Source: a virus
Lineage: Duplodnaviria; Caudoviricetes
Direction: 5' to 3' (one strand)
IMG/VR virus record: IMGVR_UViG_3300042894_001153
Location: 1-60,806 of that record
Length of the DNA: 60,806 nt
Shown here: positions 8,559 to 57,631 of the stretch, piece by piece
Layout of the letters: every line of letters begins with the position of its first letter
Numbering within the stretch: the first letter of the stretch is position 1
Made by a program: the position numbers and the translations under genes
Notes under the pieces: generated by a model
The model's database searches: none
The model's input: only the letters and a program-made list of their open reading frames with translations
What the model was told of the DNA's origin: nothing

Positions 8559-8809
8559 AATTCATCGTCAACCCATATCGGGGTCTGTGGCCCAACGTAA
8601 GCATCAAAGATATTGAACTCAGCGTACTCGATAGCCTCGTACCTATTACCTGTCTCCTTTGTGAGTATCTTAATCACCTTCTTTCTTGAGTACACAATCC
8701 TAAAGGTGTCCTGCTCAATTCCTATTATAGCTAAATCCAATCCATCAGCGAATACTAATCCATCCTTAGCGTAATGCTCGTACGTATCGATTATGTTCTG
8801 CTTCTTCAT
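8555..8809 (-). CDS. Conserved hypothetical phage protein
   Basis: ADGLDLAIIG...YS...EAIEYAEFNI..AYVG..TPI motif. Confidence 0.75.
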   Translation of the reverse strand: MKKQNIIDTYEHYAKDGLVFADGLDLAIIGIEQDTFRIVYSRKKVIKILTKETGNRYEAIEYAEFNIFDAYVGPQTPIWVDDEL

Positions 8810-10401
8810 TCTGCTGAGTAGGTTCTTGCCATTGTGATAATGGCGTTGGTTGATAATATCGTTACTGCCACAGATACTGCGTTCTGAAGCGCACTTTTAG
8901 TTACCTTTAACGGGTCTATTACACCAAGCTCATACATATCTCCCCACACGTTGTTCTTCACATCAAGACCGTAGCTGTAATTCATATTAGCCATAACGAT
9001 ATCCTTTAATCCTGCGTTTCTCAAGATTTGATTCATCGGTGATGCTAATGCCTCGGCAAGTATCTTATCTGCAATAGATTGCTCACTTGTGTTTTTAGAT
9101 AGTATCTTAATAGCTTCTTTAAACAATGCAACTCCACCACCTGGGAGTATACCCTCCTCAAGTGCAGACCTCACAGCACAAACTGCATCATCCACTCTAT
9201 CGTAAAGCTCCTTCTGCTCTAAGTCTGTATTTCCACCTACGTAGATTACACCTACTCCACCTGATAAAGATGCAATCCTTGACAAAATAAATTCCTTATC
9301 AGCTTTCTTCTTAGAAATCCTGTGTGCAGACCATAACTGATTTACACGCTCTGTAATGGCTTCATTATTCTTTATGGACTTATCCCTTACCACGATGGTA
9401 GAATCCTTCTCTACGATGACTTTCTGTGCGTGTCCGAGGTCGTCTACGGTCATTATGCTAAGGTCGTCTCCTGTCTTCTCTGAGAAGTAGGTTGCTCCAA
9501 CCGTTAGTGCAATGTCCTGCATCAGCTCGTGCTGCTTGTAACCGAAGTTCGGTGGCTGTATCGCACATATCTTCAATCCGTTCTTCATCACGTTGGCAGC
9601 CAACGTATTTATCACGTTCTGAGAACACGGTGCTATAATAAGCAACTTCTTACCCTCGTTTATAATTGGTTTAAGTACGTTCTCAATGGTAAGTAAATTA
9701 TTTATCTCTGCATCACTCACAAGTACGTACGTGTCTTCAAAGACACAATCGTCCTTCTCGTGGTCTGTGACAAACAGGTTTGACATATACCCTCTGTCTA
9801 TCTTTAATCCATTGGTGGTCTCGTAGTACGTCTCAGAGGTCTGTGAGTTCGCTATCGTTACAATACCGTTCTTGCCAACTTTCTTGTACACGTCACTTAT
9901 GGTCTTACCCAAAGCTACGTCGTTGTTCGCTGAGATAATCGCAACATTCGCTAAGGTCGCATTTGATACCTTCCTTGAGTTTGCCTTTAGGCTATCAACC
10001 ACACCATTAGTTACAGTTACCATATCCCTTAACACTTGAGTCTTGTTCACACCATCAACGATGTACTTAAAGCCTGCTTTTACCAAGGCCTCGGTCAATA
10101 CTATCGCAGTGGTCGTGCCATCGCCTGCCGATGTCGCAGTCCTGTCTGCTGCCTCCTTCATCATCCTTACAGCCAAGTTTTCAATTGGGTCTAATAACTC
10201 AATCGACCTCGCAACAGTTACACCATCCTTAGTAACAGTAATTCCGTGTGTGTGATGTGGTGACTCTATTAGCACGGTCTGTCCACTTGGGCCAAGAGTT
10301 GACTTTACAGCCTTTGAGATTGTCTCTATACCCTTGAATAACTTTTCTCTTCCTTCCTCATCGAACTTGATGTCCTTTGGTGAGTATCCTAAATTTGACA
10401 T
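8806..10401 (-). CDS. groEL: Chaperonin GroEL
   Basis: TLGPSG, TKDGVTVA, GDGTTT, GGGVAL, VIDPLKV motifs; no GGM tail. Confidence 0.97.
   Translation of the reverse strand: MSNLGYSPKDIKFDEEGREKLFKGIETISKAVKSTLGPSGQTVLIESPHHTHGITVTKDGVTVARSIELLDPIENLAVRMMKEAADRTATSAGDGTTTAIVLTEALVKAGFKYIVDGVNKTQVLRDMVTVTNGVVDSLKANSRKVSNATLANVAIISANNDVALGKTISDVYKKVGKNGIVTIANSQTSETYYETTNGLKIDRGYMSNLFVTDHEKDDCVFEDTYVLVSDAEINNLLTIENVLKPIINEGKKLLIIAPCSQNVINTLAANVMKNGLKICAIQPPNFGYKQHELMQDIALTVGATYFSEKTGDDLSIMTVDDLGHAQKVIVEKDSTIVVRDKSIKNNEAITERVNQLWSAHRISKKKADKEFILSRIASLSGGVGVIYVGGNTDLEQKELYDRVDDAVCAVRSALEEGILPGGGVALFKEAIKILSKNTSEQSIADKILAEALASPMNQILRNAGLKDIVMANMNYSYGLDVKNNVWGDMYELGVIDPLKVTKSALQNAVSVAVTILSTNAIITMARTYSAE
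9731..9746. repeat. Palindrome copy 1 GTGTCTTCAAAGACAC (inside groEL)
   Basis: Read directly. Confidence 0.95.
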
Positions 10402-11789: not shown

Positions 11790-12419
11790 ATGGAACAATT
11801 ACTAACAATCGAACAAAACTTTCTAAGTTTACCAACATCTAAGATGGGATTCAACCTTACTGAAGTTAACAAGGCAAAACGCCTAATTACAAATGCGCAA
11901 AAATCGAAGTTTGCACACACTATGCATTTAGCATCTTGCATCAAAACAGCTGTGGAGTATTTCGAGTCACCACAATGCCAAGCATTAATGCAGACTGAAG
12001 GTATATCTTGGAACAAGGAGGATTTAGGCATCAAGGTATTCGGATATCAAAAAAGCTATTTTCATAAATTGCTTAGGGCATCCAAGGTGAGTGAGCAAAT
12101 ATTGACTGCATACAACAGCAAATGTGACGAGATAGCAGATGCCGAGCGCAGTATTGCAGGACTGCTTGAATTTAGCAAGAACGTGAATGTAGAGGTGAGC
12201 GCAGATGCAACAGCAGAGGAGATTGAAGAAGCAACAGCAGAGGCAATTGAGAGTGCATCAATAGAGAGAACACCGACCATTTTCACAATGTCCTTTAAAA
12301 ATCCAAACGGATGCAATGTAGCTGTAAGGATTGATGCTGACGGCAAATTGAGTACTACCAACAGCACTGAGGATATTATGAACGCAATTGCTTTCCTACA
12401 AGCACAATTGACAGCCTAA
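11790..12419 (+). CDS. First early gene; putative HTH DNA-binding protein with an acidic linker
   Basis: WNKEDLGIKVFGYQKSYFHKLLRASK resembles a ParB/KorB-like HTH; flanked by palindromes on both sides. Confidence 0.55.
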   Translation: MEQLLTIEQNFLSLPTSKMGFNLTEVNKAKRLITNAQKSKFAHTMHLASCIKTAVEYFESPQCQALMQTEGISWNKEDLGIKVFGYQKSYFHKLLRASKVSEQILTAYNSKCDEIADAERSIAGLLEFSKNVNVEVSADATAEEIEEATAEAIESASIERTPTIFTMSFKNPNGCNVAVRIDADGKLSTTNSTEDIMNAIAFLQAQLTA

Positions 12420-12424
12420 AAATT

Positions 12425-12440
12425 GTGTCTTCAAGGACAC
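12425..12440. repeat. Palindrome copy 3 GTGTCTTCAAGGACAC
   Basis: Read directly; 5 bp after the stop codon. Confidence 0.95.
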
Positions 12441-12449
12441 AAACCAAAC

Positions 12450-12496
12450 AGCAGAGTATGGTATCCAAGGATGTTCGATTCGTCCTCTCTGCTCCA
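12450..12496 (+). ncRNA. tRNA minihelix-like element 1 (acceptor stem + T-arm + CCA, no anticodon arm)
   Basis: GCAGAG/CTCTGC, AGGATG-TTCGATT-CGTCCT, then T-CCA. Confidence 0.65.
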
Positions 12497-12517
12497 CAAA
12501 AAATCAAAAAAAATCAT

Positions 12518-13417
12518 ATGGCAACAAAAACCAAAAAAATCGAAGAGTTAGTTTACACTACGGATGGCAATTCAGAAAGAGGCGAAGTACAGCACTATCA
12601 TCGTAAACCACACCCGAGGGAACTGCAAATTGGTGCAAAGCACACCGACATAGCACAGCTAAAGCCAAACCAAAAGCAAAACCTAATCAAGTTTGCCAAT
12701 GGGGACTACAGCTCAAAGTTCACCATCGGTTTTGAGGTCGAGAAAAACAGCCTATCAAGGGGCGCAGTCAAAGAGTATCCATTGTTTTGTGGATTCGAGC
12801 GTGATGGTAGCTGTGGTTACGAGGCAGTGACGAACATTTTGCCTTTGCTTCCATCGGGTAAATGGAGAAACAAAGTTTTCTCAATGATGGTAGATGCAAA
12901 GCGCATCATCGAAGACCAATACAGCCCATCTGATAGGAGATGTGGAGGTCATTGCACCATAGCTGTGGAGGGGATGGATGGTAGAGAGATAATGGAGATG
13001 GTAAGAAAGAATTGTGGTGTTATATGGGCAATGTTCAGAAATAGACTAAGCAATAGTTACTGCTCTCATAACCAAAGACTCATTACGGATTATGACCATA
13101 CACGTGATGGTAGCAGATACCATACAGCCTTAATCAAAGGCAATTGCTTAGAGTTTAGGCTTATTGCAAGGTTTCAATCGGTTAAACAAATGATGCGTAG
13201 GTATGAATTGTTTTATGAATTGGTAAACTTTAGTGTAAACAAGCCAAACGGAAAGTTCAAGGAGTTTTTGAAGATAGTAAAACCAATTGTACTATCTATG
13301 TATGAGGGTGATGTGGCAAAGACTGAAGAGATAATGACCTTATCGGTTAAGATGCAAGATTACATCAACGATGGTACTAACTGCGACGAAATCAGAGAGT
13401 TCGTGAGAGGTTGGTAG
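12518..13417 (+). CDS. Putative amidoligase (COOH-NH2 ligase, Amidoligase_2-like)
   Basis: TIGFEVE, ERDGS, YEAVT, RCGGH, RY, LEFR motifs; likely start MATKTKK. Confidence 0.8.
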   Translation: MATKTKKIEELVYTTDGNSERGEVQHYHRKPHPRELQIGAKHTDIAQLKPNQKQNLIKFANGDYSSKFTIGFEVEKNSLSRGAVKEYPLFCGFERDGSCGYEAVTNILPLLPSGKWRNKVFSMMVDAKRIIEDQYSPSDRRCGGHCTIAVEGMDGREIMEMVRKNCGVIWAMFRNRLSNSYCSHNQRLITDYDHTRDGSRYHTALIKGNCLEFRLIARFQSVKQMMRRYELFYELVNFSVNKPNGKFKEFLKIVKPIVLSMYEGDVAKTEEIMTLSVKMQDYINDGTNCDEIREFVRGW

Positions 13418-13432
13418 TGTCTTCAAAGACAC
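13417..13432. repeat. Palindrome copy 4 GTGTCTTCAAAGACAC (overlaps TAG stop)
   Basis: Read directly. Confidence 0.95.
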
Positions 13433-13433
13433 A

Positions 13434-13482
13434 AGCAAGGTTTGGAAGTTAATGTTGGGTTCGAGTCCCTTCCCTTGCTCTA
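13434..13482 (+). ncRNA. tRNA minihelix-like element 2
   Basis: GCAAGG/CCTTGC, GGG-TTCGAGT-CCC, then T-CTA; same geometry as element 1. Confidence 0.55.
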
Positions 13483-13497
13483 ATTTAATATAATAAA

Positions 13498-13815
13498 ATG
13501 GATACGTTAAACAAACAACAAATCGAAAATGTACTTAATGCCTACAAACAAATGGCTGAGAGTATAAGGTTATCAGACAATGAGACAGCACTTGCAATGT
13601 GCGATGCAAACTTTATGGATTTAGACATCGATAGGTATTGCAAAAAGGTTATGGGCTTGAACATAAACTTACTTGACATCGATGCAATCATCTTTGGTAG
13701 GGCTTATCACCTATATCCTACACCATACGGAATGGTTAATAGGTATAACAAGCATCCTTACGATGCATTGGTAGACAGAATCGTAATTTTAACAAAATAT
13801 TTAAACCAACAATAA
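13498..13815 (+). CDS. Hypothetical early protein
   Basis: 105-aa ORF with an A-rich leader. Confidence 0.65.
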   Translation: MDTLNKQQIENVLNAYKQMAESIRLSDNETALAMCDANFMDLDIDRYCKKVMGLNINLLDIDAIIFGRAYHLYPTPYGMVNRYNKHPYDALVDRIVILTKYLNQQ

Positions 13816-15284: not shown

Positions 15285-15316
15285 TTTGGATAGTATATAT
15301 AATTGTACTATCTTTG
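15285..15316 (+). promoter_or_regulatory. Bacteroidota sigma-A promoter
   Basis: TTTG-N20-TATCTTTG; near-identical context at 19149-19180. Confidence 0.85.
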
Positions 15317-19148: not shown

Positions 19149-19180
19149 TTTGGATAGTTAATTCTATTATACTATCTTTG
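19149..19180 (+). promoter_or_regulatory. Bacteroidota sigma-A promoter
   Basis: TTTG-N20-TATCTTTG. Confidence 0.85.
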
Positions 19181-28928: not shown

Positions 28929-29116
28929 AGTCAGGTGGCGAAATGGTAGACGCAAGTTTGTAGGTTTTATGTTGCGAGTTAAAAACAACCTTAAAAGTGA
29001 AGTTAACCATCACAAGTGCGTATATAGTACCTTATGTGTTCCAAACCTATATATGTTAGTGTGAATTAACACACAAGTTAAATAGCAACTTACAGGTTCG
29101 AATCCTGTCCTGACTG
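28929..29116 (+). ncRNA. tRNA-like RNA with a ~135-nt structured insert replacing the anticodon/variable arms
   Basis: Acceptor AGTCAGG/CCTGACT, Leu-type D-arm GCG-AAATGGTAGA-CGC, T-arm ACAGG-TTCGAAT-CCTGT. Confidence 0.75.
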
Positions 29117-29117
29117 C

Positions 29118-29250
29118 AAACATAGTACAACGAAAAGGACGATGGCTGATTATTGGTCTAAGGGTGTCCAAAACTCTAAGATGCCAACAGAGGTAGAAAA
29201 GACTCCCGATGCAGTATCTGTTAACAATAGTCTGAGTTGTACTATGTTTT
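29118..29250 (+). ncRNA. Structured RNA with nested stems and a possible pseudoknot
   Basis: 14-bp closing stem AAACATAGTACAAC/GTTGTACTATGTTT with three inner helices. Confidence 0.5.
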
Positions 29251-57067: not shown

Positions 57068-57631
57068 CTAAATAACCATACTAATGTGATGGTCAAACAT
57101 TCTATATAGTTTTTCGCCATCAACATTAAATTCGTATTCCGTATCAGGCAGATATGTAACTAAATCACCTTCCTTAACCCCTTGACTCTTTAGATAGTCA
57201 TTTGCTATAAACATCTTGCCAATTAATGGCTCTTCGCTAAATGGTTTGAATATATACGAGTCCACCGTTGGAATTGGCTTTACAAAGCAGTACCTATCGT
57301 ATGCGTTCCAATCCTTTCCATCGTAGTACATAAAGAACTGCTCTGCGTCCACAAAGAACAAATCATCCTTAAAGTAGCTCCTGCCACTTCGTTGCATACC
57401 CCTCATATCGTTGTAGTACTTGAACACGTTGTGATGCACAAGAAGCACATCGCCAACCTTTATATTGCCTGAGTAGTTTACAGGTGTTCCAACCACCTCA
57501 GCGTATCTATTTGAGAAGTTAAAGTCCTCCTCAGATGTGCTGACAATAAAGTCAGTGCCTCCAATTTTTTTTACGTTGTTGTACCTCTTGCCATCCAATG
57601 GCCTTACAATAAAATCAAATAGTGATTTCAT
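57068..57631 (-). CDS. Tandem GroES-like domain protein
   Basis: Two halves, each with an F.V(K/R)P ... (V/E)GD..V pattern; ends VDGEKLYRM. Confidence 0.6.
   Translation of the reverse strand: MKSLFDFIVRPLDGKRYNNVKKIGGTDFIVSTSEEDFNFSNRYAEVVGTPVNYSGNIKVGDVLLVHHNVFKYYNDMRGMQRSGRSYFKDDLFFVDAEQFFMYYDGKDWNAYDRYCFVKPIPTVDSYIFKPFSEEPLIGKMFIANDYLKSQGVKEGDLVTYLPDTEYEFNVDGEKLYRMFDHHISMVI

Follow-up and report, generated by a model that had tools for sequence, protein, structure and literature searches.

A conserved tRNA-like minihelix at a phage gene boundary: a candidate mRNA processing signal in a slot held by hammerhead ribozymes in most relatives

Minihelices made of the acceptor stem and T-arm of tRNA were reportedly described as model substrates of bacterial RNase P by McClain, Guerrier-Takada and Altman in 1987 and in later work. 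They are also used as model substrates for RNase Z and the CCA-adding enzyme, and the 3′ RCCA tail of RNase P minihelix substrates pairs with the RNase P RNA. In the mascRNA of MALAT1 and in the tRNA punctuation of animal mitochondria, a tRNA or tRNA-like fold within a long transcript directs cuts by RNase P and RNase Z.

In plant mitochondria, the ends of t-elements are mRNA ends, and cutting by RNase P and RNase Z was proposed, and partly shown, in the sections of the report cited here (Forner et al. 2007; PMC1920247). Clustered hammerhead ribozymes flanking prophage genes were proposed, in the passages cited, to split long transcripts (Perreault et al. 2011; PMC3088659). Additional work on the purpose of phage self-cleaving ribozymes is called for in the relevant passage of a 2019 review (PMC6765202). 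A full-text literature search of main texts turned up no description of phage tRNA-like minihelices acting as sites of mRNA cleavage.

The window analysed here, i.e. the whole stretch of 60,806 bases, is a complete virus record (CheckV 100 %) of an uncultured lake-water tailed phage, which is apparently lytic. Its first plus-strand gene block, which holds two tRNA-like minihelices, is read here as an early operon. The block opens with a gene for 209 amino acids (11790–12419, + strand, from the ORF list), which has no Pfam or PHROG match. It is followed by a copy of a 16-nt palindrome (GTGTCYTYRARGACAC, 12425–12440, +), which folds as a hairpin of 6–8 bp and lies 10 nt 5′ of minihelix 1 (12451–12496, +), the sister element; by the flanked gene, coding for 299 amino acids (12518–13417, +), with 80 relatives in viral contigs; by a further palindrome copy (GTGTCTTCAAAGACAC, 13417–13432, +), whose first base doubles as the final stop-codon base of the 299-aa gene; and by minihelix 2 (13435–13482, +), identified by sequence inspection and by a covariance model match. 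The downstream gene (13498–13815, +, from the ORF list) encodes 105 amino acids, starts with an ATG 18 nt past T13479 and has no family match in Pfam or PHROGs. The first-pass annotation had placed minihelix 2 at 1 bp after the palindrome; this holds if A13434 is taken as the start, and from position 13435 the spacing is 2 nt.

Minihelix 2 has an acceptor-like stem of 6 bp (GCAAGG, 13435–13440, with CCTTGC, 13473–13478), a linker of 13–14 nt that starts TTGG, and a T-arm (GGTTCGAGTCC, 13458–13468) with the T-loop TTCGAGT at 13460–13466. In the T-stem, the loop is closed by GGG/CCC, followed by two T–T oppositions (U–U in RNA) and the pair G13454–C13472, so the stack has 6+6 positions, 12 in all, and two of the six T-stem positions are U–U. 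The tail consists of a discriminator-like T13479 and CTA (i.e. TCTA). Stem, T-loop, T–T mismatches, the TGG in the linker and the T plus CTA had all been described beforehand, and all are present in the sequence. The T-arm has the TTCRANY loop, the closing pair G53–C61 and the 12-position stack on the acceptor stem. Minihelix 2 is without an anticodon arm, with 13 nt only between the acceptor strand and the T-arm, and does not form the canonical tRNA cloverleaf (D-arm, anticodon arm, anticodon). Minihelix 1 has a 6-bp stem (GCAGAG/CTCTGC), an ATGG linker, a clean T-stem of 6 bp and the T-loop TTCGATT, followed by T and CCA; its tail is thus TCCA, with the full CCA encoded. The changes between minihelices 1 and 2 that had been taken for compensatory set apart two distinct loci, which belong to different subtypes, and are not substitutions at one locus.

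The 12-position acceptor/T stack, the T-loop and the single-stranded 3′ tail are the minimal shape accepted among the minihelix model substrates; these are, however, laboratory constructs trimmed from tRNAs, whereas the phage form is natural and has a GG-bearing linker added. The cuts at mascRNA and at mitochondrial tRNAs define the ends of neighbouring RNAs, as is proposed below for the phage, but these systems belong to the eukaryotic nucleus or organelle, have full cloverleaf-like folds and do not alternate with ribozymes. As described in the cited sections, t-elements resemble the phage minihelices in being tRNA-like, in having the T-arm motif GGTTCRANYCC, which the T-arm of the intergenic, plus-strand minihelix 2 matches exactly, and in lying between or beside protein genes; they differ in being organellar and of independent origin, and mostly in having fuller cloverleaf-like folds (PMC1920247). 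The phage minihelices lack an anticodon arm, are built on a 6+6 stack and are known from sequence, whereas RNA ends have been mapped for t-elements. Prophage hammerheads, in the passages cited, are likewise intergenic, lie on the coding strand and flank single genes of phage operons, and in the present phage family hammerheads occupy the same slots; unlike the minihelices, they are self-cleaving and host-independent and leave 2′,3′-cyclic phosphate and 5′-OH ends (PMC3088659). No hammerhead core is present in the minihelix, which would depend on enzymes of the host. These systems resemble the phage minihelices in the proposed mode of action but not by descent.

For the search of the window, a covariance model (R2) was used whose nine rows all came from other phages and none from the window. 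With filters off and on both strands of the 60,806 bases, exactly two matches were obtained, minihelix 2 (40.6 bits, E 2.7e-9) and minihelix 1 (40.2 bits, E 3.5e-9); the next-best match scored 13.3 bits (E 0.43). Part of these scores is homology, because two of the R2 rows are probable orthologues of the window minihelices. A mechanical scan of the window for an acceptor stem plus T-arm returned many weak AT-rich chance matches, among which only minihelices 1 and 2 lie in an intergenic spacer and have both a TTCGA loop and an acceptor stem rich in G+C; one further TTCGA match lies on the minus strand and is AT-rich. By using ARAGORN, no tRNA genes were found in the window, nor was any Rfam family matched there at gathering score; the Rfam tRNA model (RF00005) gave no match at E ≤ 10 in 12380–13540, where snoRNA and sRNA matches were at chance level only. 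Minihelix 2 is a real, conserved tRNA-like minihelix.

When folded alone, minihelix 1 takes the minihelix as its MFE fold (z -2.26), with a T-arm probability of 0.98. Minihelix 2 alone folds no better than shuffles (z -0.75): the acceptor stem has a helix probability of 0.85, the T helix has 0.21, the same as a rival GAAG/CUUC helix, and the tRNA-like fold lies at -10.6 kcal/mol versus -10.8 kcal/mol for the MFE. Dominance of the GGAAG/CTTCC fold, which had been raised beforehand as a reason for doubt, was not seen; the two folds tie in silico. The orthologue of minihelix 2 in the closest relative (L005:3907–3954; 81 % protein identity) has a perfect T-stem, in which the two U–U positions are A–U and G–C, and between the two orthologues the acceptor stem is intact with a compensatory G–C to A–U difference. 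Minihelix 2 is the weaker of the two copies in the genome, with a degraded T-stem.

The gene between the two minihelices had been labelled an amidoligase gene in the first-pass annotation. This label is kept as tentative: PF12224 is found on 12 % and 61 % of the members of two named protein-atlas clusters neighbouring the 299-aa protein, and a fusion gene for a GATase and a gamma-glutamyl-cyclotransferase, three kilobases downstream, was counted towards it; the protein itself had no Pfam match even at E ≤ 10, no PHROG match and no PDB profile match below E 0.46. It is possibly a distant relative of Amidoligase_2. Otherwise conserved homologues are interrupted by in-frame stops in L018 (=L190) and L201, which could be due to sequencing error, pseudogene formation or recoding.

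Relatives were fetched with the 299-aa protein, 29 viral loci at first and then 80. In the 80 related loci, R2 gave 28 matches (E ≤ 0.1), all 28 on the coding strand. Standard pairs fill 97.2 % of the cells on A2 (6 rows) and 97.8 % on A8 (28 rows), which extends the 6+6 geometry first noted in the window to the family; most of the pairing statistics arise by construction, because scan and models demand pairing. The extra T-stem pair, the GG of the linker, the C that follows the discriminator and the positions, including that of the hairpin on the 5′ side, are free of this demand. The extra pair (G13454–C13472 in minihelix 2), noted in the first-pass annotation and required by neither scan nor model, is standard in all six A2 rows and in 26 of the 28 A8 rows; in A8, where it is col43–col61 and outside the model, it is found as GC 10, CG 8, AU 4 and UA 4. 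Since this sixth T-stem pair is standard family-wide, the true architecture is 6+6, which keeps the 12-position stack of tRNA. Of the linker TGG, the GG recurs in 6/6 A2 rows; a plausible equivalent in tRNA is the D-loop GG, which docks on the T-loop.

The discriminator is followed by C in 6/6 A2 rows and in 27/28 A8 rows, usually then by T or A and then A; CCA at this position is encoded in none of the 28 A8 rows and is encoded in minihelix 1 of the window. The genuine tRNAs of the relatives have a C after the discriminator in 22 of 22 cases, then TA or an A-run in 20 and other trailers in two, and the trailers of minihelices and genuine tRNAs are, by sequence, of the same kind. Acceptor sequences and discriminator vary freely across the A8 rows, which argues against a role needing aminoacylation. 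The canonical palindrome ends 1–10 nt (median 3.5) 5′ of 16 of 30 minihelices; for 44 of 91 hammerheads, the distance from the palindrome end to the predicted cut is 5–34 nt (median 10).

The closest relative (G001) has three minihelices and one weak fourth match (E 0.2). In its spacer before the 299-aa gene (L005:2766–2990), hairpin, minihelix, hairpin, minihelix and hairpin follow in tandem, an array which suggests that the hairpin-plus-minihelix unit duplicates as a module. On a DNA contig with a loose end at 12443, the upstream slot holds another minihelix variant. Similar minihelices were seen in unrelated phage loci (L094/L117, L091). A scan for a hairpin end plus T-loop gave mostly true tRNAs among the matches listed; in the 80 loci listed for it, R1 matches (E ≤ 0.01) occur in at least six, three of them within real tRNAs.

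Several further features of the window were recorded. The 16-nt palindrome has 14 copies in the genome (at 9731, 11474, 12425, 13417, 14201, 15182, 16426, 18068, 19110, 22358, 26792, 35194, 49500 and 56586), against 0 for a reversed control. It often abuts a stop codon, and at least four copies lie within long ORFs (GroEL, helicase, a 2540-aa ORF and terminase), so that a simple role as a 3′-end hairpin leaves those copies unexplained. The phage encodes GroEL (8806–10401, −; E 7.5e-133) and a GroES-like co-chaperonin (57068–57631, −). A sigma-70 promoter scan of the window found 23 sites versus 21.5 expected, i.e. no enrichment; the Bacteroidota-type promoter pattern gave eight matches versus 2.67 expected, a count reached in 2 of 100 shuffles and too weak to name a host. 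Two near-identical promoter-like sites on the plus strand, TTTGGATAG ... TACTATCTTTG, lie at 15285–15316, about 90 nt after a palindrome copy and past a further hairpin, and at 19149–19180, shortly 3′ of a copy; their presence suggests internal promoters dividing the plus-strand block into operons. A tRNA-Leu(TAA)-like gene (28929–29118, +) has an acceptor stem, D-arm, CTTAAAA anticodon loop and T-arm that align with the tRNA-Leu of relatives, with two insertions, one of about 30 nt that follows the D-arm and one of about 75 nt past the anticodon loop; it was missed by ARAGORN and Rfam and could be an intron-bearing tRNA, a decayed tRNA or, where the plus-strand block ends, a further processing mimic.

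By reading the spacers of the relatives, a type III hammerhead was found in most of them, right after the hairpin 3′ of the 299-aa gene. The element at L007:3961–4015 matches Rfam Hammerhead_3 at full length with 47.1 bits (E 6e-9; gathering score 48.5), and at least one Hammerhead_3 match at E ≤ 0.01 is present in 23 of the 29 relatives' records, none of them over the gathering score and all falling just short of it. The closest relative (G001) has no Hammerhead_3 match. The window lacks the hammerhead fold (CUGANGA...GAAA core, three stems, NUH cleavage site): it gave no RF00008 match even at E ≤ 10 and no match to the core regex. For a comparison over 80 loci, hammerheads were called by the core regex, with no covariance model, and minihelices by R2. 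The downstream slot, 3′ of the 299-aa gene, holds a hammerhead in 56 loci, a minihelix in eight and neither in 14, with two not assessable; the count for neither includes two minihelices that start inside the stop codon (hence 8–10 minihelices). The upstream slot, which in relatives too is preceded by the C-terminal coding sequence of the 209-aa gene, holds a minihelix in eight loci, a hammerhead in five and neither in 64, with three not assessable. In no slot were both devices found. A quick ML tree was made from 74 full-length proteins of the 299-aa family (partial rows and two rows with in-frame stops left out); on it, at least six switches between hammerhead and minihelix fall in the downstream slot and at least three in the upstream slot; these counts are approximate because many forks of the tree are unresolved. 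Since neither device is present in 14/80 downstream and 64/80 upstream slots, a cut is not essential at these boundaries.

In two relatives (L006:3960–4010 and L027:3975–4025), the ribozyme/minihelix slot is taken by an unnamed motif, which is found also at L163:1390–1435. Its hairpin covaries and has the loop CAGAAACGG; 3′ of it, the conserved ATTTGGTGG pairs with the 5′ flank. The motif is matched by only three viral contigs and has no Rfam match at E ≤ 0.05 in L006 and L027; it is a candidate for a further cutting device.

Because minihelix 2 stands in the same slot as the hammerhead of most relatives, it is most likely a cut signal for the host enzymes that trim tRNAs. With a probability that we put at roughly 0.64, it belongs to a pair of tRNA-like punctuation marks, at which the mRNA is cut by RNase P and enzymes of 3′ tRNA processing. 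The first-pass annotation had already read both elements as processing signals, and the type III hammerheads at the same two gene boundaries of relatives lend this reading strong, if indirect, support. Cleavage itself, and the enzymes responsible for it, we infer from comparison of the sequences. Within a multi-gene RNA, the minihelix would fold as the upper half of a tRNA, with a coaxial stack of 12 positions, a canonical T-loop and the GG of the linker, which may mimic the D-loop GG docked on the T-loop. Host RNase P would then cut on the 5′ side of minihelix 2, between 13434 and 13435; the upstream mRNA would end 2 nt past the conserved hairpin, which would protect the new 3′ end. The 3′ cut, at T13479 or past it, would be made by a tRNA-processing activity, either RNase Z or an endonuclease with subsequent trimming; RNase Z is possible for minihelix 2 because the tail is CTA and not CCA. 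These cuts would free both a minihelix of about 45 nt and the downstream mRNA, whose leader of 18 nt would be short and rich in A. Minihelix 1 would act likewise 5′ of the 299-aa gene, and both together would free a single-gene mRNA. Among 50 ORFs scanned by using PHROGs, no integrase, RNA polymerase, RNase or tRNA enzyme was recognised; since the phage thus shows no RNase or tRNA enzyme of its own by PHROGs, a host enzyme is the likely actor.

That minihelix 2 might be a decaying relic, either of a tRNA gene or of a once-functional minihelix, and no longer fold or work, is suggested by the two U–U in a T-stem that is perfect in the closest relative, by the T helix probability of 0.21 with z -0.75, and by the presence in the same genome of a tRNA-Leu-like gene broken by two insertions (28929–29118). 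We consider this unlikely: the acceptor stem is intact and differs from that of the orthologue by a compensatory G–C to A–U change, the T-loop, the GG of the linker, the C past the discriminator and the location 3′ of the hairpin have all been retained, and the score of 40.6 bits was obtained with a model built without minihelix 2. Decay of the class as a whole is opposed by family-wide covariation and by restriction to the coding strand. The structure could instead serve in the uncut mRNA, where it would stabilise the 5′ end, enhance translation or, jointly with the hairpin before it, form part of a terminator or antiterminator; the minihelix always follows the hairpin and lies 18–24 nt 5′ of the start codon, and an RNA contig of a relative spans the slot. 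This contig, from an RNA run of a relative with about 90 % identity, bridges 13142–13746 unbroken, which fits uncut RNA or library DNA; assembled contigs show no RNA ends. A role without a cut nevertheless seems improbable, since no T-run is present 3′ and a terminator scan reports no terminator on the plus strand at either minihelix, a plain stabiliser has no need of a T-loop, GG and 12-position stack, and the slot-mate is a self-cleaving ribozyme.

It is equally improbable that the product matters and not the cut, i.e. that the excised minihelix of about 45 nt, tailed with CCA by the host, acts in trans as a small RNA, perhaps drawing off, as decoy or sponge, enzymes or defence toxins that work on tRNA acceptor ends. 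Conservation of the tRNA-like top half, including the GG and the C past the discriminator, the full CCA encoded by minihelix 1 and the tandem duplication of the module in the closest relative would all fit such a product; the same slots are, however, taken many times by a hammerhead, which gives no tRNA-like product, acceptor sequence and discriminator are not conserved, and this genome has two copies only. A still broader picture, which we regard as a long shot, would make the hairpin-plus-minihelix a duplicating punctuation cassette, swapped freely with hammerheads and at least one further unnamed motif, from which CCA-tailed mini-tRNAs of about 45 nt would be excised to do a job of their own, e.g. 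titrating host tRNA-processing enzymes or decoying toxins directed against acceptor ends. Phage attachment sites often copy the 3′ halves of tRNAs, and a site acting at the DNA level, either an origin or an attP descended from the 3′ end of a tRNA, was considered on these grounds. Such a site is extremely improbable: both acceptor strands are present and covary, for which the core of an attP has no need, and 28 of 28 family members lie on the coding strand. The attP reading was dropped, as no integrase was found among the 50 ORFs scanned with PHROGs.

Under the preferred reading of the minihelices as mRNA cut sites, two mechanistically unrelated devices, one self-cleaving and one shaped like a substrate of host tRNA enzymes, swap repeatedly at the same two gene boundaries; the comparison thus speaks for the cut itself as the function under selection. 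The cut would split the RNA of the operon into single-gene messages, each ending in a protective hairpin. For annotators, the minihelices add a class of element that is missed by both tRNA finders and Rfam, and they would extend tRNA-like punctuation of the organelle type to bacteriophages.
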